A DNA stretch of 59,352 nt, counting the filler, from Dimargaris cristalligena (lineage: Eukaryota), in the NCBI GenBank assembly GCA_003614675.1. It is 4 parts of 4 records of this genome, joined end to end, with 100 filler letters (N's around TTAATTAATTAA, not from the genome) between each part and the next. Parts side by side here need not be neighbours in the genome. Positions count along the whole stretch, not along the records: positions 44,602 to 59,352 come from ML002938.1; 3 more parts are not named here. One strand, written 5' to 3'. The notes beneath the pieces were generated by a model that searched no databases, was not told the origin of the DNA, and was given only the letters and a program-made list of their open reading frames with translations. Both the position numbers and the translations under genes were made by a program. Every line of letters begins with the position of its first letter. Position 1 is the stretch's first letter. This document shows positions 14,771-59,352 of the stretch, one piece after another.

Positions 14771-14870
14771 NNNNNNNNNNNNNNNNNNNNNNNNNNNNNN
14801 NNNNNNNNNNNNNNTTAATTAATTAANNNNNNNNNNNNNNNNNNNNNNNNNNNNNNNNNNNNNNNNNNNN
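14771..14870. other. Assembly gap spacer (N run with central TTAATTAATTAA)
   Basis: 100-nt block, identical in design to the other two gaps. Confidence 0.97.
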
Positions 14871-27600: not shown

Positions 27601-29639
27601 GGAATGACCACCCCAAGATTGTCCGGGTAACCCATATGTATTACGATACCTACAAGCAGCAGTACAACATGCATGGTCGGTTGTTGGAATACGGACGAGA
27701 CACGGTCTTGGAAGAGGTGGCCAGTCCCCACGAACTCTTCTTGACCGACGAATGCCATACCTTCAACTTTAAGACGGATTTCCGCGGCTTGTGCTCCGTC
27801 CATTATTGTGCGCCCGAGGAAACGGGCAAGTCGCTCATGGCCAAATTTGGCATCACCACCGGATTCTTTTACCGTTTCTGGCATGACCCTCAAACAGGTG
27901 CCTACGAAGATGCGGAACGCCACACGGTGCCGGTGGACCAGTGGCCTACTACGTCGGGTTACTGCCCCGCCTGTGCTAAGCGCCAGTATCTGCAGTCCAC
28001 GGAAAAGGCCCGGTGGATCATCAGGGACCTTCCTCATTCGGCCGGCACTATGGAGAAGACTCCCATGCCCTGCCTTACCTACAAGGAGATAGATTACCAT
28101 TTGGGCGACTTCGTGTACATTATCCCTAATGTACGCGGGGTTCCCTACCGTATCGGACAGATTGTGGCCTTTAGTCCCCATAATATCTACCAACGACCGC
28201 CAACATCGATAGCGCCACTTAAACCCAAGTCCCCCATCAAGATTAATTACTTAAGTGATTCTGACAGCGACAGCGACCTTAAAGTCATCATTGAGCCATC
28301 CATTCTGATGGCCACCATCTCTTCACCGAAGCCACTGTTTGCGCAGGTGAAGTACGCATTGCCCCACTTACCCAACGACCAGCTGGATCCCGCTAACAAA
28401 GCAATTCCCCGCCACGTTTGTATCCGGGAGTATATCCGGATGGATGATGTGCCCATTCACCAGCTGCCCGTGTCGGACCGGACCTTTGTCACGGTGGACC
28501 CGAGCGCTCTGCGGACCAAAAAACCCATGCTGGCTTCCCGCTCGAACTATGCCCAGACGCTAGACGGTACCCCCGAACAGTCCCGGGTGGGTATCTCCTC
28601 GGGTTCAACGGCCGAGGGGGACTCACTTACCCCCAAGGCCAGTCCAGGCAATGGGTCGCCGGCCAACGCCCTTTTGCGGTTCCCCATCAAGGACAGTCGC
28701 CATCTTTTCGCCACCTCCAAATACACCAATATTGAACCGTCGCGGTTGGAGGGCAAGTGCTGGGTCCAACACATTTCCCATATTGACGACCTGGAAGCCT
28801 ACAAAGACGACGATACCAATGCCTTCTATGTCGAATTTGAAAATCAGCGCTCCGCCACCGCCTACGACCCCGCCGCTATACCCACTGGTTTGCGCTTTAG
28901 TCGCCTACAGCCCGACCAACTGACCACCTGTGTGTCTTGTCAGCACACCCGCGCGGTTCGTATCCAATCCCGGCGCCAGCTGCTGGCGACCGCCGCCCAG
29001 GCTATGCAAGCTCCGGTCCCCCAGTATACGCCGCAGACTCACACCAAGAATTTGCTCCGGGGACTCCAGGACGGCCAGATCATTCCGCACACCATTAATA
29101 AGGCCAAACCCCTCATTGCGCTAGATATTTTCAGTGGCTGTGGTGGATTGACCGCGGGCATGGAGGCCAGTGGGATAGTAGAGACGAAGTACGCCATTGA
29201 GTTTATGCCTAGTGCCGCCCTCACCTTCGAGCGCAATTACCCCGGTGCCACGGTGTATAACCAATGTGCCAACCTCCTGTTGGCCCGAGCCATTGGGCAA
29301 CATATGGACGGCCGCGAACTTGCCCCTGAGCAGGACTTTTTAGGGCGCCGTCTGCCCGACATGCCCGCACCGGGCCAAGTGGACTTTATCTACTGCGGTC
29401 CCCCCTGCCAGGGGTTCAGCGGTATCAACCGATTCCCTAAAGCAGATGACATCAAGAACACCCTCGTTACCACGTCGTTGAGCTACGTGGACTTCTATCG
29501 GCCGCGCTACTTCCTACTGGAAAACGTCTACGGTATGGTGCGTTTCCGTCTAGGTGGTACCCAGGACAGTTCCGCCAAGATTAAGGATGGCATTAAAATG
29601 GGGGTCCTCAAATTCATTATTCGGGCCCTTACGTCCATG
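24643..29639 (+). CDS. DNMT1: DNMT1/Masc2-type DNA (cytosine-5)-methyltransferase, 3' end lost in gap; exons 24643-24733, 24888-25114, 25348-25525, 25669-26194, 26375->29639
   Basis: RFTS/RFD-like region (RILDNFIFYD...IRLSAIF...SAIWLRTTFAWYKL). Two BAH-like domains (IHDCVYV...HELFLTDEC; YHLGDFVYI...PYRIGQI). MTase motif I LDIFSGCGG, motif IV GPPCQGFS, motif VI LLENV. All four GT-AG introns keep the frame. Confidence 0.93.
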
Positions 29640-29739
29640 NNNNNNNNNNNNNNNNNNNNNNNNNNNNNNNNNNNNNNNNNNNNTTAATTAATTAANNNNN
29701 NNNNNNNNNNNNNNNNNNNNNNNNNNNNNNNNNNNNNNN
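29640..29739. other. Assembly gap spacer; hides the 3' ends of two converging genes
   Basis: N run with TTAATTAATTAA; open reading frames run into it from both sides. Confidence 0.97.
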
Positions 29740-42323: not shown

Positions 42324-44041
42324 ATGTCCGGTTTGAATGACCCGACGACGACCAGCCCCGTCGCTGAGGCGAACGCCACCGTCCTGACCGACCCGGCACC
42401 CCCCAAGCAAGTCCACTTCGAAGCCCACGTGGACTCTGAAACCGAGACGGAGACCGATACCGATTCCGAAACGGACTCGAGCGACTATGACTCCGACGAT
42501 TCCGAAGCGGAAGAACCGAATAGCAGTGCCTCTGCTGCTGCTGCCACCGTCGCCTCGATTGCTAGCCTGAAAAAGCCCTTCGTTTCGCTCGTTTTAGACG
42601 CCAGCCCTTTATTTCAAAGTCTCGAGGGCATTTCCCGTTTGGCCGATAAATTCTACACCGTCCCCGAAGTCGTCCAGGAAATCCGCAGTTCCAAGCACCG
42701 CGAGCAACTCGCCAACAACATTTATTTTGATCTACAGGTGCGGGAACCCAGTGCGGTTGATATGAAAGCGGTGGTGGAATTTGCCAAGAAAACCGGTGAT
42801 TACGCTTCGCTGTCCGCCCCCGATATGAAAATCCTCGCTTTGACCTACGCTCTGGAACGCGAGGCCAAGGGTATCGACCATCTGCACACCGAACCCGCTA
42901 GCGCCCGGGGGGAGGACACATCCGCCGAACCGTTGAGTGTTGATTCAGATGCGGTGACTGAGCAGATGCAATCACTAAGCCTGAATAAGGCGGATAAACC
43001 CAAAGCACCCGCCCGCGCGCCGGTGGATTTCGATGACGGTTGGATTACGCCTAGTAATGTGGCCAAGAAGAATGCCGAGTTTGGCTTTAATCGGGTGGTT
43101 GATTCGAGTCAGGACAAAATTGCTGTGGCTTGTGCTACCGGGGATTTCGCCGTACAAAACGTGATACTTCAGATTGGGTTGAATCTGGCCGACTTTAACG
43201 GCTCGTTGATCAAGAAAGTCCAGACCAGTGTCTTGCGGTGCTACTCATGTTACCAGTAAGTCCGCAGTAGATTATATATATATTGATTACATGCTCCCTT
43301 TTGGGTTCTCTGATTGCTATTAATTGCGATAAGCCTGGTTGACAACCCGTATTTATCATGGCAACACATGTTAACTAACCTTCATCGTTTAATGTAATAT
43401 ACCTTGGGTCATACTACCATCTGGCTAGCATCATGACGAGAACCGACCGGAAATTCTGCTCGGAATGTGGGCACTCCACCATTACTCGCGTCTCGGCTTC
43501 GGTGGGTGAAGATGGGGAGCTGCAAGTCCACCTTTCGAAGCACTATAAGCTTAACCTGCGGGGCACACGGGTAAGTAACATCCTATTCACCGAATCCAGT
43601 AATTCCGTCCGAGCCTACCGGTTTGTGCTTGAGGGCAGTATATTTAACAATAGGGGGCTGTCATATGGAATATAATAGTCCTCTCAGACAGTCGTATTAA
43701 GTAGCGTTTATATATATCCGCTTACCCTTCCAAATGTGATGCACCTAAATTGTATCTACCCACAGTACTCGATGCCCAAGCCCAAGGGCGGCCATAAGCA
43801 CACCAATTTGGTGGTGCGCGAGGATCAAAAGGAATACCGCCGTGGTATTCGGGCGGCTAAAGCCCGGGCCAAAAACAACGGCCCCGGTGTATTCGACGTG
43901 GACTACATCCCAACCTTCCACGCTACCGGATCCCAAGCTAACCCACGGTTCAACATCACTGACAAGGTCGGTTATGGTCGCAAGAACCCCAACGTGGTCA
44001 AGAACACGGGTAACCGCAAAAAGAAATCATCCCGGCCTTAA
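42324..44041 (+). CDS. NOB1: 20S pre-rRNA D-site endonuclease NOB1 (449 aa); exons 42324-43255, 43429-43570, 43766-44041
   Basis: PIN domain (LVLDAS...EVVQEIR...FAKKTGDYASLSAPD), GWITPSN, ACATGDFAVQNV, Zn ribbon (LRCYSC...FCSECG), RGTRYSMPKPKGG, GYGRKNPN. Introns keep the frame. Confidence 0.95.
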
Positions 44042-44501: not shown

Positions 44502-44601
44502 NNNNNNNNNNNNNNNNNNNNNNNNNNNNNNNNNNNNNNNNNNNNTTAATTAATTAANNNNNNNNNNNNNNNNNNNNNNNNNNNNNNNNNNNNNNNNNNN
44601 N
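44502..44601. other. Assembly gap spacer
   Basis: N run with TTAATTAATTAA. Confidence 0.97.
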
Positions 44602-45072
44602 TGTTCGGAGTTGATATTTCTTGTAACCGTAAAACTGTGCTTATATGAATGGTGTGTCTTAACTTTGTTGGAAATACTAAAGGAATATTGATAAACAGGT
44701 TCATTTTAAGTGATTAGAATAAATGGGCACAGGGTAACTAAATACACCAACGTAGTTGGACTGATACAGAAGGGAATAATAGACCCGTCGGTACATATTT
44801 TTCAACACATTAGGGAATTATTATTGAATTTCTACCACTTTTGCGGGCATACTTGATGTGCTGTTGTGATAAAAGGAATTTGGCTTAGGAGTGATAGATG
44901 GGATCGGTTTAGCCAGGCTTTATAATGAAAATTGCGTTGGATGAGGTAAATACTACTGGTTAAAAAGGAGCTTCTGGCCTATTTTCCTATACACGCTGTC
45001 TAAAATATTATACGCTTTGGTTGAATTCCACCCATATGCGTCCTGTAGAACCCACCCTTGATGTCCAATATT

Positions 45073-48000
45073 CTAATCTCGGTTATTTCGGTTGATCATT
45101 GTGTTCACTTCTATAGGGAGTTGGGGTAACAGTTGGTGTTTTAATGTCAGGTTAGAGTTATATGGGGTATCTGTGGTTGCCTCTTGACAGTTAGTCCTAG
45201 AATCTGAAAGGCTGTCTAGGGTTGGTGGAGTTATAAATCCAACTTTTACCATATACGCCAAATAAAGGCCAATCAGACTAGAAATAGGTGGGCAATCTAT
45301 ACCCCCAGTATGGCAGATGACCTGGGTATGACTAGTATCTAGGATGGGGAGTCGAGTGTTTTTGGGCATATCATCCTGAGTAAATTGTAGTACAGGGTAG
45401 AGGGCATTGTCAGTTGACTTGTCTGTGGCCTCCTTTATATAGACACACCAAAGAGAGTATGGTATTGAAACTATGCTGAATCCATAAAGGCGGAGTTGGT
45501 CAAACATATCATTATAACTAAACCGGGAGGGTGATTCAATATGAAATGTTCCTTGGTCCAAGGCCTGTGGCTGAGCAACTACCTGGACTACGAACTCAGC
45601 AATATAATCCACTGGGCACATGTTGATAGCATTATCTAGGACAGGTGCTTTACCCAGCTGGATACATCCCTTGACCAGGCGCCATTGAAAATCATCAGAA
45701 TTGATTACCCCTGTTTTACTTGACCCTACGACAAATCCAGGTCGAATAATGGTGCAGGGATAGCCACGGGCCCGGGCCTCAAGTATAAGCTTATCGGCTA
45801 CCCACTTACTCTGGTCATAGCCACTGGGGAGATCATAGCGACTGCCTTCCAAGTCATCTGATTCTAGTACACCAGTTCCTATCTTGGCTTGGGCCAGGCT
45901 GGGAGTGGTACCCATATGGGAGTCAGATACTAGAGATGGGCCTTCAAATAATGACACAATATCTTCGGGCCTGGTCAATTGTATATAGTGGCTACTATTG
46001 AACACCGAAATAGATGAAACAAAGTGAAGTGGTTTAACATGGTCAGAGGTAGCCAGTTCAATAGTCGCTAGGGTACCCAATACATTGGAAGACCGGAATT
46101 TGCTATAGGGATACATCCAATAGACTAGTGCCCCATTATGGATGATAGCATCTACACCCCGTGCTAGCGACTGCCATTCAGCCAAAGAAATTCCTAGACG
46201 TGGTTGGGCTAGGTCTCCTACAACCACACGGACCCGTTGACTACCATAGCCAATTTTACAGTCAGGGTAAGTGCTAGTTTCAGAGGTCGTGATGTCCCAC
46301 TGGGTTTGCCATAGCAAACTATTAATACAGCTTGACTTAATTCGATCAAAGGCATGCTCCGGAGACTGGGCGCGTACCAGGCAAATTACAGTAGCCGTTG
46401 GGAAGTGCATTAGCAGGTGAGCTAGGATAAAGGCCCCCAGGAAGCCCGTGGCCCCAGTCAGGAAGAATATGGGAGCTTCCCCAGACCGGATTCGCACAGG
46501 AAAGACAAATGGAGTATCACTATTGTTGAACTGTATAGTGGACAATGGGGGCGGAAGTTGGTCAATTAGAGTAGCAAAGTCATTTGAGTATTCAGTGCTT
46601 GGATCAGGTGACGATTGGACTGGAGGATGTTCAGAGGAAACTGGGCGAGTCACAGTATTGTCAATAGCTGAAGGTTTAGATACGATATTTGATGTAGCTT
46701 GGGCAAACTGATCCACTGCTGCGGCCATACTATAAACAGTGGGATGCTGGAATACCAAGCTAACTGGAATATCAATTCCAAATCTCTTGCGAACCTGAAT
46801 ACCTAGCCGAGTGGCTAAAATTGAATGGCCTCCCAATTCGAAGAAGTTGGTATGTAAGGGAATCATGGAATCTAAGCCAAGGGTTTGCTGCCAAATATTA
46901 TTAAGGGTATTCTGTGTAGGACTATACTCACTTAGTGGGTCAGTGGCTGCTGACACACTGGTATTGTCTCTAGAAACTGAGGTATACTGCTGGCTTATCA
47001 TGGACTTTAAGGCATCCTTATAGTAAGGAAGGGCAGCTTTATCTACCTTCCCATTTGTTGATAGCGGGAGTTCGGGTAGTGGTACAAACACACTAGGGAT
47101 ACTGTAACTGGGAAGCTGCTTTTTTAAGAGTCCTCGGAGATCGGAAATAAGGCAAGTATTTCTGTGGTAATGCCTTTGATCAATGTCAGTTGATTTTGTT
47201 TGATTTACATTAGCCTGTGGTACAATATATGATACTATGATCTTATCATCATTGTCATCCTTGCGGACCACAGTCACATTTGCTTGGATTGATGGGAATT
47301 GGGCGATGTAATAATCTATTTCATCCAACTCAATCCGGAATCCCCGAATCTTTACCTGGTTATCCATTCGCCCCAAATATTCTACTTCACCATTTGGTAA
47401 CCAGCGGCCAAAGTCACCTGTGGCATACAGTGTACCCTTTCCTGTAAAAGGGTTCTTGGGAAATTTAGCTTGATTAAGATCAGGCCGATTAATATAGCCT
47501 GGACTAACACCAATTCCACCAATATATATTTCACCCACAGTCCCAATGGGGACCGGCTGCATATAAGAGTTTAGGATATAGCACTGGTAATTGGGAATAG
47601 GGCCACCAATAGTGATTGGACCAGTAGAAACTACTTGGGAGTAATGGCTGACAATAGTAGTCTCAGTTGGACCGTACCAATTCCAAACTGTAGTCACAGC
47701 TAACCAACTATCAGCTAATTTACGGCTGAGAGGTTCACCTATCAAATATATGGATTTCACATTCAAATAGTCTGAGGGGCAAAGTTGGCTGAGAACAGAT
47801 GGGACAAAACAAGACATGTCCACTTGACTGAGTGTTTTTGCCAAGTCATCATTAGGGAATACTACTGTGGACCCATAGCAAGCTGGCATTAAGGCATTGG
47901 TAAAAAATACATCAAAACTGGGGGAGACACCCACCATAACTCGGGTGCCTGCTTGTTGAAAGTCATGGAAAACAGGGTTGTTGAGGTGATAATTGATGTT

Positions 48001-51000
48001 TTCATGTGTAATCATAACACCCTTGGGAAGCCCAGTTGACCCAGATGTAAAGATAATATAGGCCAGGTCGTCAGGTGTATTTTGATGAATGGTATAGTCA
48101 TAATTGGTGACTTCATAAGTTTGCAATAGTTCTGACAGAACCAGGGCACCAGGCCACATGTTAGGGGTGATGGTGGCGTTGAGGACCCATTGGCATGAAG
48201 CAGCTTCAATAATATATTGCTGGCGCTGTTGTGGTAATTTGGAATCCATGGGTACATATACAGCCCCAATATACCATATTGCCAGCATTGCCACTAGTGT
48301 GTTGGGGTGGTTAGTAACAATGACACCAAGCTTGTCACTGGGCTGGACATATCTCTTCTTTAGGGCTGCTGCAACCCTGTAAATACACTCACTTAGGTAC
48401 TGATAAGTCCAGGTTTGGCCTGAAAATTCAGTGGCAATAGCAGTAGGGTGCATCTTAGCAGCCTCGTAGAATAGTTCCAAGGCCCCATGAGGTAACTTTA
48501 CTATAGGCTCATCAGGTCCAGGGTTTCCTAGGGAAAAGTCCTCAAGTAAAATACTTAATTCCTCAGGACAAACAATGGAAGCAGTTGGCCATTGCTGACC
48601 TGGACTAATACAGGCCTGTATATAATGCATAAAGTTTTTCAATATACACTCAGCTATTGATTGTTCAAAAACATCTGGGTTATAGTGCAATTTGCACCAT
48701 GGTGAAAATATATCAGTTTGGACTATTAGCTCAATATCATAGGCAAACACTGTTTTGGGTTTGGCAGGATAATGGTACTGAAACATTTCAGAATTAGCAT
48801 TGCCAAGTATGTTTGGGTTGATAGAAAGGTGAATTCTAGATAGGCCTGAGATCTGATTAACTGTGGAAAAACCTAAGAGTTGGCCTAATCTAGTGGTACA
48901 CGTCATGCATTGTTTCAATGTTTGGGTAATCTGATTTTGTAGTTCCTTAGCTAATTGGCTGATAGTCGTGGGCCAAGTACCCCCTACTTGAACTGGTACA
49001 GTTGAGAGAGAATGTAGGTTTAACCCAGACTTATTGATATTTGATTGGCCAGATAAATCACTAAAATCTACAATGAGCTCATCCTGGCCTGTTATATGAT
49101 GAATGAAGGTGAAAAACATTGCTAACCACATTTCACTGGGTAAGACTGATCCAATAATGGCCATCTCATATACTGAGGTAACTAAGGATGTGAGAAGATC
49201 AGCTTTGACCATGCTGCATTGTAGACTTGGTAAAGGAGGGTGAAGTCTATCCATATATAAGGCCAACTTTGTAGGGGCAGCTTTAAGAAGTGATAACCAA
49301 TACTTTAGATCCAGACTAGAGGGTTCTTGGTATTCAATACTGTATCTGGCAGGTACAATTTGGGTATTGTCTGATTCAATAGTAGATAAACCTTGAATGA
49401 GTTCATGAAAAATATTTTCAAAAAAAACAGTATTACCAGCAATCTCATGTACATGTAGAAATACATATGATTGTATGCTATTAGCAGAAGGGTCTGAACA
49501 CTGGTATAGTTTAGCCTGAATAAGTACCCCCTGTTCAAGGTCAAAATGAATATCTTCTGGACCAAAGTTCTCAAAATCCATCTTAAAATGACCTAGGCTC
49601 TGGTACTCTTGTACATTAATATGGATAATTGGTAGTATGTGACAGGTCAATACACCATTTGTTAATTTAAACTGGCACCGCAGGGCTTCATAGGTGGCAA
49701 CTATATGATTGATGGTTTTCTGGACAGTTGTTAACTGAATTGTGGTTATTGAAGAAATCATACAGCAGTGATAGAAACTAACTGCAGAGTGGAGTAGATG
49801 GCTAAGGGACCAAACTCTTTGTTGATAGTCATTAGCTGGCTGACTACAAATAAAAGGGAATGTTAAGGAGTTGGATATTCTATCATAGGTATTGTTACTG
49901 GTAACTGTGACTTGATTATGGCTAAGTTGATTAGAAACTAAGTTGGCTAAAGGTTGCAGTTTGTTAACTGTGATTAAATCACTTAATATTATTCTAATAT
50001 AATATTTCTGATAGACATAGTATTGGAGGTGTTCTAATTGGGCTAGGGAAAATCCCTCAGTAGATTGTAGAGGGGTAGTTGCAGATAAACTGGTAGTTGG
50101 TTGGTGGAATAAGTACAGCTCATTAATAACTACTGCTAACCACCACTCTAATTCTGACAGCATTGAGTATAGTGGGAGTGTAGTAAGATAGGCTAGGGCA
50201 AAATAGTTAGTATTGCAACTAAGTTGGTTTGTATAATCAGCTACATGAGGGAACCCCACAGTAGAAATAATACTGCTAGGAATAAGCACCCGAGGAGTAG
50301 TAGGAGGAGCTATTTTGGCCTGCAGTTGGGCCAAATCTTCCTTAGGGGTATGGTCAACTAATACTACTAATTGTCCATTGGGTAATATTAGGACCTGGGG
50401 ATGAATAGCCCCAGCTTTAAGGAGTGCCTGTTCTAGTATACCAAGATGCACTTGCTGGCCTTTGAGATTCACCCTCTGGGAACTAGGGCCTAGTATGAGA
50501 ATTTGGTTATCTGAATTATAGGAACCAAGGCCAAGATCCCTAACCTTTTGAGGCTGAATAAAATTACCAACATCAGTAAATGCTATGTAGCCAAGAACCC
50601 CTGGAGGGCAGGGATATCCCTGGTAATCTAAAACTGCTAGTGGGTTACCCCCTAAGGAAGTATCTAAAATAGGTAGAGTAAAAGTTGCAAGTTGATTACT
50701 AGTTATAAAGCAGAATCCATCAAATATAGATCCATTATAAACTAGGTAGAGGGAGGACTGGTTAGCTAGAGGATGGATACTAGATGGTAATAGTTTGGCT
50801 AGATTTACCAGTACTATATGGTGATTATATTGAGTTTCTTGGGTGAGTTTAATGGAGGAGGTATCATGGTAGTGTGTTTGATTATCATAAGGTGGAGTAT
50901 ACACCCCTGTAGGTTTAGCAGTTACATTAAATAATAGACACAAAAGAATAAGCCAAATATTTTCCTGGCTACTAATCTCTAATGAATAATCAAAGGAACA

Positions 51001-54000
51001 CTCAAGTCTACTATTGAAATATGACTTGGCTTGGGTAAGGGCATGTGTTATTTGAGTACAGGTAATCGAAGTTATAGCAGGACCAGTTAAGCCCCAGTCA
51101 GAAATATATTGCAAGCTAATATTAGAGTTACTGTACTGGGAACTGTGAAGTTGGATATATTCTAAATTAGTGCTAGGAATATTAGTATTCCAGGATGGTA
51201 TTTGGATCACATTGGTATTTTGTGGGAAGTATTCTGAGTATGTATTTGAAAAGGAGGTATGGAGCCATACAGCCTGGGGTTCAAAAGTTACTAGAGATAT
51301 ACCCATTTGTTCAAGAGATTGGGTATATGGATGAATTGTCAGCTGAGCATTCAATTTGATAGCAGCCACTAAGCAGATGGATAGCTGGCTATAGTCTTTA
51401 ATAAAAGCCAGTATAGTTGGAGATAATCTTGAAGTATAATTAATAGTGGAGTGCACTAGGGAATCAGCTAGGTTATTAAGCTTACTGACAGATAGTATCT
51501 GTTCATCAGATTGGAGGACCAATTGGTCTGGATTCTTATTTATATTACATTCCCAGACTTCATGTAGTGATTGGGATACCATGACAGAAGAAGGATTGTA
51601 GATAGGCTGTTTGAGGTTACTTATTAATGGATATGATAGTGGTATAGTAAGGGTAAACTGATTAATATGGTTTTGTGGATCACATATAAGTATTTTTTCG
51701 AGGATTAACTGGGTCATTTCCACAATCTGAGTTATAGAGGTTCCTGAGTAGATTTCTGTACTGTAAGATACTTTAACTTGTATGGAGGAGGACTGGTCCA
51801 CAAAATTAATAGTCAATGGATATTCAATATATTCGTGAATATTAATATCTGAAATGATCAGTTCATGTAATTGGTCATTTACTAGACTAGGGAAATTCTC
51901 AAAGCCTAGGAGTGTGTGGAATAGAGGTCCAGGCTGGCCTAATCCACTCCATTGGACAATATCAGTAAACTGGGAATGCTCAAATGGAATCATATCCACC
52001 TGGTCCTTATGAAGAGATTGCAGCCATGGCTCAAGGAGAGAATTGTTTAGAAGAATCCGGCATGGTATTGTATTAGTACAGGGCCCAATAACTTGGTCCA
52101 TACCAGGGATATTTAAACTTCGACCAGATATAATTACACCAAAAGTCACATCATCCTGGTTAAGTAGTTGACCTAAGACTAAGGCATAAGCAGCCCGGAA
52201 TAGGGTTGCAATTGAGATTCCCAGACTTTGAGTGATTTGGAGTAATTGGGCTTTTGAAATTTTGAGTGGTGTTGAATAGGATGCATAGCCTGGTAAACCA
52301 ATATAGTCTGGGTATATTAATGGGGCTGGTGTAACTGTTATATTATATAGGTAGTTGGTCCAAAATATCTGTGCCAAAGTGGGATCTGACTGGCATATAT
52401 ATTTAACAACAGCTGGAAAACTAGTATGGGGTAATGATCTGGCTAATCCTTGGTGATGATAGGTTACCATCCACTGTTGAAGGAGCAAGGGTAATGACCA
52501 TCCATCTATTAATGAGTGGTGAATTGTGATAATAATATTATGGATCTGGCTATTAGGTGTGGGAAACACAAAGTTACGGACCATATGTTCCTGGAGGGTG
52601 AAGCCCTGTTGCCGGTTCTTAATAAAAAATGCCTCAATGGAATTAAGAGGCTGGTCAGATATAGTCCAGGCTGTAGGTAAAGTGGTAAGCACCACCTGGA
52701 GGAATCCTTGGGATAAAGTATTGGGTGATTCAATGAACAGTGTACGTAGGGAAGAGTGCTGGTTGACTACAGAAGCCCAGGCATGGATTAGTTGATCTGG
52801 GTCCAACTGGCCAGTTAGTTTGATTGCCATTTGGACAAGGTAGGTTGATGGATCCAAAGAAAGGTTCATAAGAAGGCCACCCTGGACTGCAATACATGGT
52901 AGTATATCCTCAACCTGGGCCAGGGGAATTCCTCTTTGGTGTATTTGGGCAAGGATTTTCTGAAACCCAGTACCAGAAAGAGATATATGTGGGAAGTCAT
53001 ATTTGGTAAGTAGAGGTTCAGGGATCATATTTTCAGACTGTGTACCAAGGCTAGTAAGTTTGACCAAATTTTGATGCCACCTGGCCATGATTTTGACAAT
53101 AATATCCCTGTGGTAAACCTGGGGGTTATACTCCATAATTAACCGGAGACAGTCACCAACTATTGTAGGCATGGGATTGAGGTCAAAAACAATGTAGTCC
53201 TGGGGGGCAAAGTCATGTAGTCCAAAGTAATCAGTCCATTCAATAAAAAGTGGATCATTACTTTGGTGAGTGTTTGAGCTATTAAATTGTCCAAAGTAGT
53301 TGAACTGGACATCCATTCTCTCAGGCGTCCTAGCTATAAGTTTACGCTTCTCATCAGCTTGGACACCTGGCATATATTTGATTATTGAGTAGGGAAAACC
53401 TTTGGCTGGGATTCTCTGCAAGGCTTCCTTTGTACATTGCAATAGCTCCAAGAGTGACTGGTTTGGTGGAATCTGAAGCACTAAGGGATAGAGGGAGGTA
53501 AACCAACCTACAGTGCGAGTAATATCTTGATCTGCAGCCCAGGGTTCCCGACCATGACCCTCCATACAGAAGGATATCTGGTCAACCCCAATAGTAGTAG
53601 CGAAGGCCTGGGCAAATGTGGCCAGTAGTATGTCTTGGGGGGTAACTCGCCATTGGGGAGTGAGCTGGAAAAGGAGATTATTGGTGGCCTCATAATCAAA
53701 ATCTAAAGACACAGAGGGGCGGGCCACTTGATTCTCTCCAGTATAAATCTCGGGTGGAGGTAGCAGTGAATAAATGTTGGGAATTGGGTGACCTGTATCA
53801 ACCTGTAGAGGCCAAATATCTGCCAAGAGAGTATTGGAGTAGCTTGCCAGCTGGGTGGCCCAGGTTTGGAACGACATTGTCTTGGGTGGGAGGGGTTTGC
53901 TGAGTAACAATGTATTTAGATCTTCTGTAATTATCCTCCACGAAACCAAGTCCACCAGAATATGGTGAATAGTGAAGAAGAGTTGGGTACTGGGCGGTTT

Positions 54001-56940
54001 GGCCAGGTCATGGATAATGGCCACAGCAACTACCGGGCCAGTAGTTAGATTAAGACTTGACTGGACTTCTAGAATAAAGGCTGAGTAGTCATCGGCGCCC
54101 ACAGGCCTTTCTAATACCAGAAGGTCAGCACTTGTGGCCACTTCAGTAGGGATTAACTGTGTCCAACTCTGCCCAGTCTCACTGAGCTGGAATCTCGCCC
54201 GTAGAATATCATGGTGGTTAAGTAAGGCAACAAGAGCATCAGTGAGAGTTGAGTGGGACAGTGGGAAATGGGGGTTGACCTTAAATAAAAAGGATTGGTT
54301 GAAGTGACTATAATTCTTAAAAGGAAGATTGGTAAACCAATTCTGAATGGGGGTGAGGGCCACATCTCCTTTGGCTTGGACCTGATAGGCTAAGCCCGTA
54401 TCAGTTTTTGTGTTAGTTTCTTGCTGAAGATACTGGGCCTGTTGCTCTAGTTTAGGGTACTGGTAGACCAGTGGGACGGAAAACTGGTAACCCAGTTTTT
54501 GGTACTTCGATATAAGTAAAATAGCTGAGATGGAATCACCACCAAGTTTGAAGAAATGGTCATAAGTTCTAATTTTACTGATGTCCTTCTGCAGGATATG
54601 TGCCCAGGCCTGTCGGAGGCTACACTCAATACCTGATAATGGCTGCTCCTCTAAACCTGTTGTGGAGGGCTGGTTTAAAACGTGATCAATTTGTGGGAGA
54701 GCCTTGCGATCTAGTTTACCGTTGGCGGTTATTTGAAACTCTGGCACCAATATGATTATTTGAGGCACCATCTGCTTAGATAGGCGACTGGATAGGAAAT
54801 TCCGAATAGCGACTTGGTCTAGATCTGCTGGGCTGGCATATAAAACAAGGGTATCCCGAACTATTTTTGCCACACAATTTTTCAGACCGGTAAAGTTACC
54901 TGCCAGCTGCTCAATTTCCTCGAGCTCAATGCGAAACCCGCGTAGCTTAATTTGATTGTCGAAGCGGCCCAGGATTTCTATTTTTCCGTCGGAGAGCCAC
55001 CGAACACGATCACCGGTCCGGTAAACTTGACCGGGGCCATGCGGGTTATCAATGAATTTGGCTTGAGTTAATTCAGGTAGGTTCTGGTAACCACGGGCAA
55101 GACCTATTCCCCCTATGAGCAACTCGCCAGGGACACCTACCGGCACCAATTGAAGCTGGTCATCGACCACTAAATTGGTCACATTTTTAAGAGGCCGGCC
55201 GATTGAAATCTCATCGCCAGGATTGATTATAGTTATATTGCTAAATATAGTGATTTCTGTTGGTCCATATATGTTCACGAGGGTGCAGTGACTTGCCCAT
55301 TGATTGCATAATTCTGCTGTACAGGGTTCACCGCCAATAATAATTGTCTTTAGATTTTGAAAATCGGCAGGATTAAGACGGGAAAGAAATGAGGGGATAA
55401 AGTCTGCTGTATCGACGCTTTGTAAGGTCTCAATAATATTACCAGTTGGAATCACGACAATACCCCCAGCACTTAGTCCATACAGAACCTCCATTACCAT
55501 CCAATCAAAAGCAACCGACATCATTAAAAGTGATCGATGACTTTTACTGCAGGCATCCATTAACATGGGATTAGTAATGACATTGGTAAGACTTTGGTGC
55601 TCAATCATTACACCCTTGGGACGACCAGTAGTGCCGGATGTGTAAACAATATAGGCAAGGTCACGCCGTGCTGATCGATGGGGTTGGAAATCAGATGGGT
55701 CCGAGTTGGGTAATGATACAGTGAAAGGGTCCGCCATCAATACAGGAATATGAGACTGAGTTGGCATTTTACTAGCGGACGATTCAGTGACAAGCACTAA
55801 TTCCGCACCACTGTCTTCCAGGACAAACCGGATGCGATCGGCTGGGTACTCCGGGTCTATGGGCACATATGCTGCACCGGATTTGAGTACCGCAAGTAAG
55901 GCGACGATGTAGGCAAATGCCTTGGGAATGAGTAGGGCAATCCGTGTCTCGGGTTGGGCACCATATTGGCTAACAAGAACACGAGCAAGCTCGGAACTGC
56001 AATTGTCCAGCTGGCGGTAGGTCCATTCATTGTGGCCATGGGTGACGGCAATATTATGAGGCGCTTTTATAACCTGGTCGCTGAATATGCTGTGCACAGG
56101 CTGGTTCACGCACTGGATTGGGACATTCATGCGAGAAAAGGTCATTAGACGAGTTCTTTCTTGGTCACCGACCCAGGGGATATCACGGATGAGGATTGGG
56201 GGCCTATTGGAATCCTTCATGGTCCAGGCATGAGCCACTGCCCCCAAAACCGTATCAAATTGATTGGAGAACTCCTCTATAGCAGAGGCCCGGTAGGCAC
56301 TGTGGGAATATGTAAAATTCAGCGTGGCAGAGTCATCCGCCAAGCTAAATTCAATCAGCAGCCTGACTCCCACTATGGCCAAAAGGGTAGACTGATAGCC
56401 TTCGGAGTTGGTGACGGTGGAATAGATAGATCCGTCCGGGTTTTTGGTGGATGGCTGATTGGGGACAGTGGACAGACTACAACGTAGGATCACCTCAGGA
56501 GGCGGGGGTGATTCAGCAATGGCATTGGAAGGGTTTCCGCTTACGTTATTTAAATTGATTTTTGGCCCGTTAAATTTGTTGCAGGAGCTAATCAACGAAG
56601 TAACCTGGGCCTCGGGATCCACGTTAAACAACACCCAGACCAGCGGGGCTCCATCGGGGTATTTATCGTTGAGGAATCCAGTGGGGTAGCCAAACGCCAC
56701 CTCCGATTGATTGTAATACCGACTTAGCAGAATGGCCAGAGAAGCCATAACCACTTTGTTTATGCCAGATTCGGGGCTATGCTGAACGATCTCCGATGAA
56801 AGATGTTGCTGATAAGTCCCAATACCCTGCTGGACTCGGCTAGGTCTGCCTAAAGGCAACTTTACATTTGCGTGGGTTTCAGAAGGTAAATGGGAAACTG
56901 GGGCTACACCATCGGCGGAGAGGTGATAATATTGCGACAT
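45073..56940 (-). CDS. Intronless nonribosomal peptide synthetase (~3955 aa): partial C - A - T - E - C - (decayed A - decayed T) - degenerate C - A - T - R (thioester reductase)
   Basis: First ATG at 56940 (track start 57048 is TTG). A1: YTSGTTGRPKG, YGPTE, YRTGD, NGKLD. T1: LGGDSI (~54535). E: HHILVDLVSW, EGHGRE, RTVGWFT. C: HHSLIDGWS (~52510). Last A: FTSGSTGLPKG (~48040). T: LGGHSI (~46825). R: TGATGFLG (~46445) and YDQSK. Confidence 0.95.
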   Translation of the reverse strand: MSQYYHLSADGVAPVSHLPSETHANVKLPLGRPSRVQQGIGTYQQHLSSEIVQHSPESGINKVVMASLAILLSRYYNQSEVAFGYPTGFLNDKYPDGAPLVWVLFNVDPEAQVTSLISSCNKFNGPKINLNNVSGNPSNAIAESPPPPEVILRCSLSTVPNQPSTKNPDGSIYSTVTNSEGYQSTLLAIVGVRLLIEFSLADDSATLNFTYSHSAYRASAIEEFSNQFDTVLGAVAHAWTMKDSNRPPILIRDIPWVGDQERTRLMTFSRMNVPIQCVNQPVHSIFSDQVIKAPHNIAVTHGHNEWTYRQLDNCSSELARVLVSQYGAQPETRIALLIPKAFAYIVALLAVLKSGAAYVPIDPEYPADRIRFVLEDSGAELVLVTESSASKMPTQSHIPVLMADPFTVSLPNSDPSDFQPHRSARRDLAYIVYTSGTTGRPKGVMIEHQSLTNVITNPMLMDACSKSHRSLLMMSVAFDWMVMEVLYGLSAGGIVVIPTGNIIETLQSVDTADFIPSFLSRLNPADFQNLKTIIIGGEPCTAELCNQWASHCTLVNIYGPTEITIFSNITIINPGDEISIGRPLKNVTNLVVDDQLQLVPVGVPGELLIGGIGLARGYQNLPELTQAKFIDNPHGPGQVYRTGDRVRWLSDGKIEILGRFDNQIKLRGFRIELEEIEQLAGNFTGLKNCVAKIVRDTLVLYASPADLDQVAIRNFLSSRLSKQMVPQIIILVPEFQITANGKLDRKALPQIDHVLNQPSTTGLEEQPLSGIECSLRQAWAHILQKDISKIRTYDHFFKLGGDSISAILLISKYQKLGYQFSVPLVYQYPKLEQQAQYLQQETNTKTDTGLAYQVQAKGDVALTPIQNWFTNLPFKNYSHFNQSFLFKVNPHFPLSHSTLTDALVALLNHHDILRARFQLSETGQSWTQLIPTEVATSADLLVLERPVGADDYSAFILEVQSSLNLTTGPVVAVAIIHDLAKPPSTQLFFTIHHILVDLVSWRIITEDLNTLLLSKPLPPKTMSFQTWATQLASYSNTLLADIWPLQVDTGHPIPNIYSLLPPPEIYTGENQVARPSVSLDFDYEATNNLLFQLTPQWRVTPQDILLATFAQAFATTIGVDQISFCMEGHGREPWAADQDITRTVGWFTSLYPLVLQIPPNQSLLELLQCTKEALQRIPAKGFPYSIIKYMPGVQADEKRKLIARTPERMDVQFNYFGQFNSSNTHQSNDPLFIEWTDYFGLHDFAPQDYIVFDLNPMPTIVGDCLRLIMEYNPQVYHRDIIVKIMARWHQNLVKLTSLGTQSENMIPEPLLTKYDFPHISLSGTGFQKILAQIHQRGIPLAQVEDILPCIAVQGGLLMNLSLDPSTYLVQMAIKLTGQLDPDQLIHAWASVVNQHSSLRTLFIESPNTLSQGFLQVVLTTLPTAWTISDQPLNSIEAFFIKNRQQGFTLQEHMVRNFVFPTPNSQIHNIIITIHHSLIDGWSLPLLLQQWMVTYHHQGLARSLPHTSFPAVVKYICQSDPTLAQIFWTNYLYNITVTPAPLIYPDYIGLPGYASYSTPLKISKAQLLQITQSLGISIATLFRAAYALVLGQLLNQDDVTFGVIISGRSLNIPGMDQVIGPCTNTIPCRILLNNSLLEPWLQSLHKDQVDMIPFEHSQFTDIVQWSGLGQPGPLFHTLLGFENFPSLVNDQLHELIISDINIHEYIEYPLTINFVDQSSSIQVKVSYSTEIYSGTSITQIVEMTQLILEKILICDPQNHINQFTLTIPLSYPLISNLKQPIYNPSSVMVSQSLHEVWECNINKNPDQLVLQSDEQILSVSKLNNLADSLVHSTINYTSRLSPTILAFIKDYSQLSICLVAAIKLNAQLTIHPYTQSLEQMGISLVTFEPQAVWLHTSFSNTYSEYFPQNTNVIQIPSWNTNIPSTNLEYIQLHSSQYSNSNISLQYISDWGLTGPAITSITCTQITHALTQAKSYFNSRLECSFDYSLEISSQENIWLILLCLLFNVTAKPTGVYTPPYDNQTHYHDTSSIKLTQETQYNHHIVLVNLAKLLPSSIHPLANQSSLYLVYNGSIFDGFCFITSNQLATFTLPILDTSLGGNPLAVLDYQGYPCPPGVLGYIAFTDVGNFIQPQKVRDLGLGSYNSDNQILILGPSSQRVNLKGQQVHLGILEQALLKAGAIHPQVLILPNGQLVVLVDHTPKEDLAQLQAKIAPPTTPRVLIPSSIISTVGFPHVADYTNQLSCNTNYFALAYLTTLPLYSMLSELEWWLAVVINELYLFHQPTTSLSATTPLQSTEGFSLAQLEHLQYYVYQKYYIRIILSDLITVNKLQPLANLVSNQLSHNQVTVTSNNTYDRISNSLTFPFICSQPANDYQQRVWSLSHLLHSAVSFYHCCMISSITTIQLTTVQKTINHIVATYEALRCQFKLTNGVLTCHILPIIHINVQEYQSLGHFKMDFENFGPEDIHFDLEQGVLIQAKLYQCSDPSANSIQSYVFLHVHEIAGNTVFFENIFHELIQGLSTIESDNTQIVPARYSIEYQEPSSLDLKYWLSLLKAAPTKLALYMDRLHPPLPSLQCSMVKADLLTSLVTSVYEMAIIGSVLPSEMWLAMFFTFIHHITGQDELIVDFSDLSGQSNINKSGLNLHSLSTVPVQVGGTWPTTISQLAKELQNQITQTLKQCMTCTTRLGQLLGFSTVNQISGLSRIHLSINPNILGNANSEMFQYHYPAKPKTVFAYDIELIVQTDIFSPWCKLHYNPDVFEQSIAECILKNFMHYIQACISPGQQWPTASIVCPEELSILLEDFSLGNPGPDEPIVKLPHGALELFYEAAKMHPTAIATEFSGQTWTYQYLSECIYRVAAALKKRYVQPSDKLGVIVTNHPNTLVAMLAIWYIGAVYVPMDSKLPQQRQQYIIEAASCQWVLNATITPNMWPGALVLSELLQTYEVTNYDYTIHQNTPDDLAYIIFTSGSTGLPKGVMITHENINYHLNNPVFHDFQQAGTRVMVGVSPSFDVFFTNALMPACYGSTVVFPNDDLAKTLSQVDMSCFVPSVLSQLCPSDYLNVKSIYLIGEPLSRKLADSWLAVTTVWNWYGPTETTIVSHYSQVVSTGPITIGGPIPNYQCYILNSYMQPVPIGTVGEIYIGGIGVSPGYINRPDLNQAKFPKNPFTGKGTLYATGDFGRWLPNGEVEYLGRMDNQVKIRGFRIELDEIDYYIAQFPSIQANVTVVRKDDNDDKIIVSYIVPQANVNQTKSTDIDQRHYHRNTCLISDLRGLLKKQLPSYSIPSVFVPLPELPLSTNGKVDKAALPYYKDALKSMISQQYTSVSRDNTSVSAATDPLSEYSPTQNTLNNIWQQTLGLDSMIPLHTNFFELGGHSILATRLGIQVRKRFGIDIPVSLVFQHPTVYSMAAAVDQFAQATSNIVSKPSAIDNTVTRPVSSEHPPVQSSPDPSTEYSNDFATLIDQLPPPLSTIQFNNSDTPFVFPVRIRSGEAPIFFLTGATGFLGAFILAHLLMHFPTATVICLVRAQSPEHAFDRIKSSCINSLLWQTQWDITTSETSTYPDCKIGYGSQRVRVVVGDLAQPRLGISLAEWQSLARGVDAIIHNGALVYWMYPYSKFRSSNVLGTLATIELATSDHVKPLHFVSSISVFNSSHYIQLTRPEDIVSLFEGPSLVSDSHMGTTPSLAQAKIGTGVLESDDLEGSRYDLPSGYDQSKWVADKLILEARARGYPCTIIRPGFVVGSSKTGVINSDDFQWRLVKGCIQLGKAPVLDNAINMCPVDYIAEFVVQVVAQPQALDQGTFHIESPSRFSYNDMFDQLRLYGFSIVSIPYSLWCVYIKEATDKSTDNALYPVLQFTQDDMPKNTRLPILDTSHTQVICHTGGIDCPPISSLIGLYLAYMVKVGFITPPTLDSLSDSRTNCQEATTDTPYNSNLTLKHQLLPQLPIEVNTMINRNNRD

Positions 56941-58779
56941 GTTGGGTTGGGAAAGTGGTGTAGATCTACTATTCAAAAGAATCCCGGAGACTGGATTAGA
57001 CAGAATACGAATGGATATACCCGGTAGTAATTGTGTTACTGCGAACAAAACGGGATGGATAACTATGATTAGCTGTAACCCGCCGGCTCGACGTTTAGAC
57101 TGTTTTATACTGAATGGAAGGAAACGTCGGTTAGATTTTTAGGGGCAACAACGCCCTGTTAGACCCATTAGTCAACAAGGGTCCCTCTTCTATCGACTAT
57201 ACATTACCGCCGAAGGATGTATTAATCAAGATTCCCAGCTATTTGTGGCACGTAAACCGGGTTTCGGCCGGTATAATAAGTCATTGAAATATATGCGGAA
57301 TAATGATTAATTTTACATGTTTACTCCCGCTGCATCATCAAGTATCAAATTGCCAGTGAATACCTTTTAAAATAATTACACTATAATTTTTTAATTACTG
57401 TTCTGGAGAAATTAACATTGTTTTATTAGAAACTGACTGGTCAGCTTTAGTAATGCATACTTGAAGAACGTGCACCGACCGTACCCATCCAAAAAAGCCA
57501 TTTGTGTTCGTTAATAACCAAGTCTCTACCACATTTAATCCGTATCTGAATATAAACCGCCAATTTTAGACTGATCCAAACAAATCATTTAACCTACTTC
57601 GAATGGCATTATTAAAGTCGACTCACCTTTATAGCGGAGACTGCGATAGCATTTTGTAAAATACCTGACATTCAAAATCTACCATTTAGAAGCGAGCACC
57701 CGTTGAAGTGACCTCTTGTACACTGCACCCATTACCTGAAACGTCGTCCACTTTTGATTGCATGCCCCAGATTTACGCGACACTCCTTATATGATAATAT
57801 GGCTTATGATACCAGCGTTCATGGGGGCAATCAAGGTATCAAAACTTAGTTAATCACTTTCACCAACCATAATAGATTAAATTGGTCATCAAAATAATAT
57901 ATGTAAAGCCATGTTTCCCGGGTTTCCAAATGATTATACAACTCTACTAGCCCAATGTTAGACTAAACCCAACCCTTTATTGTATGTTTCTTTAACTATC
58001 AATATATGTACATATAGTGTAATTTATATTGAGCAATATCATTAATATGGCGGGCTTGGTCACCAATTTAAATAACCGGCCTAAGGCGTACACTAGGCCA
58101 GCACTCGCTACATTGTAATACCAGACAGATCCACCAGCGCTGACGGCCTTTTGATTCCAGACCTAATACTCTCCCCCCACTTTGTGGGAATAATCATGAT
58201 ATTAATAAAAGCCTACGATGGTATCGCTGTTAATCCAAACATTACTACCGCAGCAAGGGGTTACTTTCCTAGGACTGCTTGAGAGTAAACTATCCTATAC
58301 TTTACTACTTTTACCAGATCCCCAGATGTACTTTAGGTGGCGAGCCCTTTTGAAACATATTTGTGACAAATTAATGTCTCTTTATTTAGAGTGAATGCAC
58401 TATCACTAGAGTAAATTGACTTATTATCAGCCCCTATTATATAATGTTTTGATAAGTGGAAAATAATAAAAGTTTATATATATACATTAATAAACCCATG
58501 TGAAATGAGTGAAAACAACTGGATGACAGCAGGCATCTCGCAGTGGCCAGTTTTACAGCATATTCCAGTTCGACAGCCACATTCAGTGTGGGTGAAGTTT
58601 ATGGATAGTGTAAATTGATCAACTAGTGCCATTGGGCAGACCTGGACAATAATTTCCACAATGGGACATATTTTCAATGTGATCTTACTATGCAATAGTC
58701 CTCAGATGAAGTAGAGTTTTATTTATAGTGAATCTAAGGCAGGTAACCTTTTGGTCATAATTTGCCATCCACAGGGAAT

Positions 58780-58825
58780 ATATGGGTGAAGTTCAACCCA
58801 GCTGTATAGGGTAAAATCCATATAG
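58780..58825. mobile_element. MITE-like element, partial copy 3 (one terminus)
   Basis: atatgggtgaagttcaacccagctgtatag closely matches the left ends of copies 1 and 2. Confidence 0.55.
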
Positions 58826-59352
58826 GTAGGTCATCATATTCAGGTCATGTGACCTTTGGGGGATGGACATAACCTTCCCCCCCCCCTATATTATCCACCC
58901 ATCCATCACCACCAATATAAGCTAAGGAGACTTAGCCTATATTGTGATGGGGAGGGGGTACACCCAGATAGGGCAGGGGCAGTACTGGTACTCAATTGAG
59001 TATCAGCATAGTAGGTGGGGTTATATTTATGCTTATAATTGTACTAACCCTATAATACAATAATACGCCCTGTCCTTTTAAGCTCTGCCCTATTTGTTTT
59101 AACTAGCTCTTTAGCCAGCTGTTTTAAATAAAAAGAAAGGGCACTTAAAGGTGCTGCCAAATGGTAAAAAGGGAATGCCAATTGGTAAATGGGAGCCAGA
59201 GGCTTCTAAATTTGAATGGGAGTAGCCAACTGGCAAATGGGGGATAGAGATTCCCTTTTTTGCATGGTGAATGTAGTGAAAGGGAATAGGGCCCTAAGGC
59301 CCTGAAATTCGAATGGGGAATTGATATTGGCAAATGTGGGCCAATGGGAATC

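Follow-up and report, generated by a model that had tools for sequence, protein, structure and literature searches.

The window analyzed here is a stretch of 59,352 nucleotides from the fungus Dimargaris cristalligena (assembly GCA_003614675.1), and its last part (window 44602-59352, record ML002938.1) is a 14751-bp contig on which one gene stands almost alone. This gene encodes a nonribosomal peptide synthetase (NRPS) and reads as a single uninterrupted frame of 3991 aa at window positions 45073..57048 on the (-) strand, with its first ATG at residue 36 (window 56943). We consider it likely that the last module of this D. cristalligena NRPS is a natural chimera, in which the Asub, carrier (T), and thioester reductase (R) unit of LYS2, the alpha-aminoadipate reductase gene, was joined to an NRPS adenylation (A) core at the A8 motif, and that the fused end was multiplied within the genome. 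A first-pass annotation made from the sequence had proposed such a join, along with the gain of a reductase, on the basis of nine quoted peptide strings. All nine are present in the translation of 45073-57048 (-), and part-wise similarity, trees, and a mapped breakpoint agree in pointing to the same event.

Layout of the NRPS gene

The features of the gene, in the order of translation, are as follows.

45073..57048, (-) strand: whole NRPS open frame, 3991 codons plus stop
56149..56895, (-) strand: N-terminal stretch with a weak remnant resembling a condensation (C) domain, residues ~52-300; Pfam Condensation E value 9.3e-05, 21.7 bits, under the cutoff
54970..56097, (-) strand: A1 core, residues 318-693; A3, A5, and A7 motifs intact; TIGR01733 392.4 bits, cutoff 317.4
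54424..54618, (-) strand: T1 carrier domain, residues 811-875; GGDSI at residue 836
53032..54369, (-) strand: probable epimerization (E) domain, residues 894-1339; HHILVD at residue 1028; Pfam Condensation 180.9 bits
51649..52911, (-) strand: condensation domain C2, residues 1380-1800; HHSLID at residue 1510
49849..51648, (-) strand: decayed A/T stretch, residues 1801-2400; no Pfam or NCBIfam family, A and T core motifs absent
48658..49839, (-) strand: divergent C-like domain C3, residues 2404-2797; Pfam Condensation 50.2 bits
47374..48501, (-) strand: A2 core, NRPS type, residues 2850-3225; A3, A5, and A7 motifs intact; TIGR01733 343.1 bits, cutoff 317.4
47326..47373, (-) strand: A8 hinge motif GRMDNQVKIRGFRIEL, residues 3226-3241; NRPS-to-LYS2 switch between residues 3225 and 3234
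46969..47325, (-) strand: Asub, apparently LYS2 derived, residues 3242-3360; A10 lysine in NGKVDK at residue 3332
46714..46905, (-) strand: carrier domain T2, apparently LYS2 derived, residues 3382-3445; GGHSI at residue 3406; Pfam PP-binding 61.1 bits
45232..46464, (-) strand: thioester reductase, apparently LYS2 derived, residues 3529-3939; GATGFLG at residue 3532, YDQSK at residue 3744; TIGR01746 312.2 bits (cutoff 213.35), PF07993 228.6 bits (cutoff 20.1)

Family matches identify the protein as a multimodular NRPS (two TIGR01733, two PP-binding, and three Condensation matches) and its terminal domain as a thioester reductase, with family scores over their cutoffs and with the NADPH loop and the catalytic Tyr and Lys in place. 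A motif scan returned exactly two complete A motif sets, two carrier serines, two HHxxxD motifs, one NADPH loop (GATGFLG), and the YDQSK motif. The best solved relative of the R domain is the MxaA reductase (4u7w, E value 5.4e-69).

Several regions are less canonical. The putative E domain follows a T domain and contains HHILVD, and its TIGR01720 tail scores 55.6 bits, below the cutoff of 74.2. The N-terminal stretch is kept in the D. cristalligena paralog P0434/P0502, with residues 52-890 of the query matching residues 16-844 of P0434 at 45% identity. The decayed stretch aligns only weakly, and only with the N-terminal portion of an A domain (4d4g, E value 1.2e-06); up to residue 2246, this stretch is shared with the paralog P0461, which is collinear with the query over residues 320-2246 at approximately 50% identity. 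C3 reads HVHEIAGN in place of the expected HHxxxDG, and no third HHxxxD was found by the motif scan.

The junction at A8

The A2 core and the sequence that follows it have different relatives. In pairwise comparison, the A2 core is 35.6% identical to the A1 core of the same protein (237 bits) versus 23.4% to the A core of D. cristalligena LYS2 (57.8 bits), which bears out the earlier suggestion that this core resembles A1 and not Lys2. In the alignment, the insert of ~30 residues that lies between A6 and A7 of LYS2 is absent from the query. Downstream, Asub is 48.7% identical to that of D. cristalligena LYS2 (105 bits) versus 34% over 38 residues to the Asub of A1 (34.7 bits), and T2 is 56.9% identical to the LYS2 carrier domain (98.2 bits) versus 34.3% to T1 (37.0 bits). 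From within A8 onward, the Asub-T-R unit is 49-57% identical to LYS2 of the Dimargaritales and 24-35% identical to bacterial NRPS R domains. When the parts were taken separately, the A core grouped with NRPSs in per-part similarity and in trees alike, and Asub, T, and R grouped with LYS2.

The Lys2 likeness had been proposed to start near window position 47375, and the hinge motif GRMDNQVKIRGFRIEL indeed lies at 47326-47373. Sliding-window comparison against LYS2, which had been put forward as a check, gave a single breakpoint inside A8, and the maximum chi-square test gave the same result. In 40-residue windows up to approximately residue 3220, identity to LYS2 is 12-42%, and identity to the A1 of the same protein is 30-57% over residues 3040-3220. 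Past approximately residue 3220, identity to LYS2 rises to 55-80% in conserved blocks, and that to A1-T1 is 10-40% beyond the shared A8. The informative-site test used four NRPS parents (the A1 of the same protein and three Dimargaritales NRPS A domains) and four Dimargaritales LYS2 parents. It detected one switch, between residues 3225 and 3234 (chi-square 77.9, 144 informative sites), with NRPS-like and LYS2-like sites in a ratio of 88:11 before the switch and 6:39 after it.

The same junction recurs in the genome. All four partial T-R models of D. cristalligena (P0002, P0003, P0008, and P0009) have an NRPS-type A6-A7 region that lacks the LYS2 insert and are of LYS2 type after A8. P0002 is a truncated public model of the NRPS studied here and is 100% identical to it over Asub and T; no full-length model of the gene was found among the searched proteins of 2195-6985 residues. 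These public models begin at A6, probably owing to seeding on Lys2 homology, and the comparison of the other three loci covers the region from that point onward. The NRPS-to-LYS2 junction common to the four models fits a single fusion that was followed by duplication to at least four loci.

The first-pass annotation had also described the NRPS backbone as bacterial in style, and this part of the proposal was not supported. We ranked the kin of the A2 core by single BLAST high-scoring segment pairs rather than by summed HMMER bits, because proteins with many modules add up HMMER scores and thereby hide A-core kinship. The nearest cores are those of the D. cristalligena NRPS paralogs P0434/P0502 (49%), P0435 (49%), and P0461 (46%), followed by NRPSs of D. 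verticillata and Tieghemiomyces (44%) and of Dispira (39-41%). Beyond the Dimargaritales come other early-diverging fungi, namely Basidiobolus (37%) and Calcarisporiella (35-36%), and then bacteria, at only 33-37%. LYS2 A cores rank 476-485 of the 496 matches, at 23% identity. P0502 (7347 aa) is collinear with query residues 52-890 and 1354-3468 and then continues into further modules, and an R-domain match was present in none of 13 Dimargaritales NRPS rows. The collinearity with P0502 and P0461, together with the lack of an R domain in these 13 rows, indicates that the backbone belongs to the D. cristalligena NRPS expansion and was cut short and capped. That expansion is reported, in the accessible portions of two papers, as 27 NRPS genes, most of them alone on short contigs, or as 21 NRPS and 7 NRPS-like genes (Ahrendt et al. 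2018, PMC6784888; Tabima et al. 2020, PMC7466969). The gene described here is a member of this lineage-specific set; both analyses used A domains, and those portions of the papers do not mention a LYS2-derived end.

The resemblance of the Asub-T-R unit to LYS2 is also evident in profile and protein searches. The NCBIfam Lys2 model (TIGR03443) matches residues 3206-3945 along profile positions 678-1362 of 1390. Its score of 645.7 bits, over the second half of the profile only, is below the equivalog cutoff of 1030.1, and the NRPS is thus not itself a Lys2. The Asub-T-R protein search scored 8000 proteins, and we considered the best 120 of 4599 matches with E values of ≤0.001. Among these 120, four are the D. 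cristalligena partial T-R proteins (P0002 at 97%, P0003 at 73%, P0008 at 50%, and P0009 at 48%). All other function-named proteins in this set are alpha-aminoadipate reductases, and the rest, mostly about as long as Lys2, are either unnamed or called hypothetical. The top LYS2 proteins in the set are those of Dispira simplex (50%), Tieghemiomyces (49%), D. cristalligena (47%), and D. xerosporica (46%), with the others at 38-44%.

Proposed function, donor, and competing explanations

We propose that, in the ancestor of the present copies, the Asub-T-R unit of a duplicate of the organism's own LYS2 replaced the part downstream of the last A core. The part replaced would correspond to the region that, in the paralogs, runs past the last A core into further modules. 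Because the crossover lies inside A8, the native Asub-T-R interfaces of the donor would have moved as one, and the fused end would later have been multiplied to at least four loci. In the resulting enzyme, A1 and A2 would each load one amino acid, the E domain would invert the first residue, and the single canonical C domain would join both residues across the decayed middle module. Because that module is decayed, the peptide is probably only a dipeptide. Given its sequence, the LYS2-type R domain probably carries out reductive release of the T2-bound thioester with NADPH, the most likely product being an aldehyde, as for Lys2. Lys2 releases its aldehyde through a two-electron reduction and stops there (PMC2835699, in the part accessible). 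A dipeptide aldehyde could cyclize to a pyrazinone- or piperazine-type product. Alpha-aminoadipate is an unlikely substrate for this NRPS, judging from the NRPS-type A core.

Some observations weigh against this reading. With a decayed middle module and no HHxxxDG in the C-like domain that precedes A2, the assembly line may be crippled or may work in an unpredictable manner. The 25 between-run variants within the gene, some of which may be amplification errors or paralog contigs, comprise 8 synonymous and 17 nonsynonymous changes with no stops, a ratio that indicates no strong within-species constraint. No RNA run is among the runs listed for the stretch, from which nothing follows. The decayed A/T stretch (residues 1801-2400), the degenerate C3, and the variant ratio would all suit a relic, that is, a genuine chimera in an NRPS that is decaying and nonfunctional and simply has no stop codon yet. 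We regard this explanation as unlikely, albeit worth keeping in view. The frame is open over 3991 codons, and core motifs are kept in both A domains, both T domains, E, C2, and R. In P0461, even the decayed stretch is conserved at ~50% as far as residue 2246. We further scored 115 LYS2-invariant T-R columns, defined as those shared by at least 37 of 38 LYS2 sequences. The NRPS in the window keeps 99/115 of these despite an overall identity to LYS2 of only ~50%, and P0003, P0008, and P0009 keep 86-96, versus 64-81 in eight bacterial R domains. Across the four paralogous ends, identity has dropped to 50-73%, and 86-99 of the 115 columns are still kept. Several changes are common to all paralogs (e.g., G to D in GYGQSKW), which points to a common, maintained state. 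On balance, these sequence features lead us to favor a functional gene.

The origin of the fused unit was addressed with two trees, one built quickly from Asub-T-R (48 rows, 714 columns) and the other built more carefully from T-R (59 rows, 550 columns), with eight bacterial NRPS R domains as the root of the latter. The two trees agree, and their LYS2 rows follow fungal taxonomy. In the T-R tree, the unit in the window and P0002, P0003, P0008, and P0009 form one clade (100/100) that is sister to the two D. cristalligena LYS2 rows (100/99) and lies within Dimargaritales LYS2 (100/100). These placements support the lineage's own LYS2 as the putative donor, with the fused unit present at four loci. 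An intact LYS2, whose presence elsewhere in the species had been named as a check, is represented by P0006, which came from the protein search and scores 1672.7 bits against TIGR03443 (cutoff 1030.1) over profile positions 1-1362. The timing of the capture is less firm: uniting the five Dimargaritales LYS2 rows without the NRPS units cost 22.5 log-likelihood units and was not rejected by the approximately unbiased (AU) test (p-AU 0.051). With the AU test at p 0.051, the capture may have slightly preceded the divergence of the Dimargaritales sampled here.

Sisterhood of the NRPS units and D. cristalligena LYS2 in these trees does not by itself give the direction of transfer. That D. cristalligena LYS2 instead took its Asub-T-R unit from an NRPS, or that gene conversion between the two is ongoing, nevertheless appears highly improbable. 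LYS2 rows track fungal taxonomy, and the D. cristalligena LYS2 branches in the T-R tree are short (0.08 + 0.008) compared with the stem of the NRPS units (0.33); the longer NRPS stem suggests faster change after capture. In addition, P0006 matches the Lys2 model from end to end, and an identity of 47-55% excludes recent exchange.

A generic likeness also scarcely accounts for the data. Under that explanation, the terminal R domain would be an ordinary NRPS reductase whose apparent Lys2 motifs are family-wide features. GGHS, GYxxSKW, and the NADPH loop are indeed common to all thioester reductases, and the R domain scores above the general TIGR01746 cutoff. However, the tree nests the unit within the LYS2 clade of a single fungal order (100/100), and the scores of the R domain are 513-523 bits against three of four Dimargaritales LYS2 proteins (461 for D. 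xerosporica) and 330-421 bits against other LYS2 proteins, versus 74-207 bits against six bacterial-type NRPS R domains. When long proteins were scored on T-R, the best bacterial protein reached 383 bits, versus 729 for the D. cristalligena LYS2 model.

An assembly or annotation artifact, such as the false joining of an NRPS contig to LYS2 or one of its paralogs within a conserved motif, would be conceivable in a source assembly as fragmented as this one (~14.8-kb contigs), for which Logan contigs break at several spots within the gene, but it is refuted to a very large extent by contigs with no or few differences that bridge the junction in three runs and by the three further loci that have the same junction. 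Five DNA runs from two studies contain the stretch, and the contigs of four were compared over the whole NRPS contig; they cover 30/30 depth bins without joints, and no joints or loose ends occur at the junction. The junction itself (47326-47376) is bridged in X1 (46898-47729, 0 differences), X2 (44627-48057, 2 differences), and X4 (47177-47938, from the other study). One of the runs may be the source of the assembly. For X5, no spanning piece is among the pieces listed, which are the longest only. Since T-R is only 47-55% identical to true LYS2, it cannot represent read-through into LYS2. The independent contigs spanning the junction thus answer the concern over a misjoin that accompanied the original proposal.

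Parallels, precedents, and minor observations

Scoring long proteins on T-R alone also retrieved LYS2-like ends in six NRPSs of Mortierellaceae, one protein of Calcarisporiella, and one of a chytrid. The Mortierellaceae proteins are P0187 (Mortierella alpina, 4415 aa), P0243, P0244, P0246, P0248, and P0249. In the T-R tree, these six units adjoin M. alpina LYS2 (100/96) within Mortierellaceae LYS2 (100/100). P0187 consists of three A-T-C modules followed by A-T-R, and 40-residue windows of its T-R show 70-90% identity to M. alpina LYS2. Its switch lies at residues 3879-3883, in the A-T linker, and Asub thus stays of NRPS type. The Mortierellaceae NRPSs resemble the Dimargaris gene in being multimodular and in having T-R nested in the LYS2 of their own group but differ in their junction, which is in the A-T linker and not in A8. 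A single clade of Dimargaris and Mortierellaceae units, a grouping named after the tree had been seen, was rejected (difference 256.7, p-AU 3e-05). Judged from the trees and junctions, the Mortierellaceae capture is independent of the Dimargaris one.

The two remaining proteins, P0250 (Calcarisporiella thermophila, 4345 aa, 375 bits) and P0256 (Polyrhizophydium stewartii, 5720 aa, 337 bits), have LYS2-like T-R ends that the tree places weakly or on a long branch. We can offer only as a speculative possibility that LYS2, a housekeeping gene that nearly all fungi possess, has been a recurrent donor of T-R or Asub-T-R units to NRPSs of early-diverging fungi, with at least two captures, possibly four if Calcarisporiella and the chytrid are included, at differing junctions, and that the Dimargaris cassette serves in at least four synthetases making D-residue dipeptide aldehydes or pyrazinone-type compounds for mycoparasitism. 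Separately, P0242 (D. cristalligena, 2680 aa) and P0245 (Chytriomyces hyalinus, 2613 aa) are public models named alpha-aminoadipate reductase with PPR or RasGEF domains; in these, the gene caller probably merged LYS2 with a neighboring gene.

Among known systems, Lys2 (TIGR03443; class I adenylate-forming reductases) shares with the D. cristalligena NRPS the Asub, T, and R domains, by apparent descent, as well as the NADPH loop, YxxxK, the carrier serine, and the A10 lysine. The NRPS differs from Lys2 in its A core (23% identical), in the absence of the A6-A7 insert and of the Lys2 N-terminal domain, and in that the Asub-T-R unit here caps a multidomain NRPS. In working parts, the gene is closest to AusA of Staphylococcus and PpzA-1/PerA of Epichloe, which have effectively the same set of two A, two T, one C, and a terminal R domain. 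Relative to AusA and PpzA-1, the D. cristalligena NRPS has in addition a probable E domain and, between C and the last A domain, a decayed module, and its R domain appears to come from LYS2. AusA has the order A-T-C-A-T-R, and its dipeptide aldehyde cyclizes. The AusA model NF047350 gives the NRPS 344.2 bits against a cutoff of 2500, making it an analogue by architecture and not a member. The R domain of PpzA-1 is needed to reductively release and cyclize a dipeptidyl thioester, according to the available part of that report (PMC6926027). By analogy with AusA and PpzA-1, a free dipeptide aldehyde would be expected to cyclize here as well.

The position of the junction also has a precedent. Recombination among bacterial NRPSs tends to keep the Asub-T interface, and T-E-C exchanges span A8 to the next A1, as described in the accessible part of the work of Baunach et al. 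(2021, PMC8097286). Like those units, the one described here has an Asub that moves with its T domain and A8 as a boundary. Unlike them, as far as that part of the source describes them, it would have as its donor a primary-metabolism gene of the same fungus, it links A cores that are 23% identical, and it brought a release domain with it.

Terminal reductases have already been described in NRPSs, and so has recombination between NRPS modules. A literature search, with supplements and many subscription journals outside its scope, returned no account of a multimodular NRPS with a LYS2-derived end for either Dimargaris or Mortierellaceae. What would be new is that a primary-metabolism gene from the organism's own genome supplied a whole off-loading unit, and thus that a housekeeping gene was reused to complete a secondary-metabolite assembly line. 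The join is precise to ~10 residues of the A8 hinge despite A cores of only 23% identity, and the fused end persisted and multiplied. Dimargaris and Mortierellaceae may together be viewed as natural experiments in the placement of cuts that an adenylation-carrier-release unit can take and yet be kept by selection, a question central to NRPS engineering. The results also call for an annotation correction, as each of the four D. cristalligena ends is publicly entered as a partial "male sterility protein" fragment, and they provide concrete candidates for the chemistry of the obligate mycoparasite D. cristalligena.

Several minor features of the window were recorded. At window positions 46384 and 57369, all four runs read another base than the assembly (A>C), the former corresponding to I3555M in the R domain; these positions are probably assembly errors or minor alleles. 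At the contig end upstream of the NRPS (58378-59352), summed depth rises 10- to 30-fold with many loose ends, and this segment looks like a repeat. N spacers are located at 14771-14870, 29640-29739, and 44502-44601 (pairs of 44-N runs, ~14.87 kb apart). Because these spacers join separate contigs, the genes to the left of 44602 are not neighbors of the NRPS. The other contigs hold eukaryotic open reading frames encoding a BAH and C-5 cytosine methylase protein at 26472-29687 (+), a cyclin at 5022-6989 (+), a class IV aminotransferase at 17929-18972 (-), and a PIN-domain protein at 42324-43259 (+).

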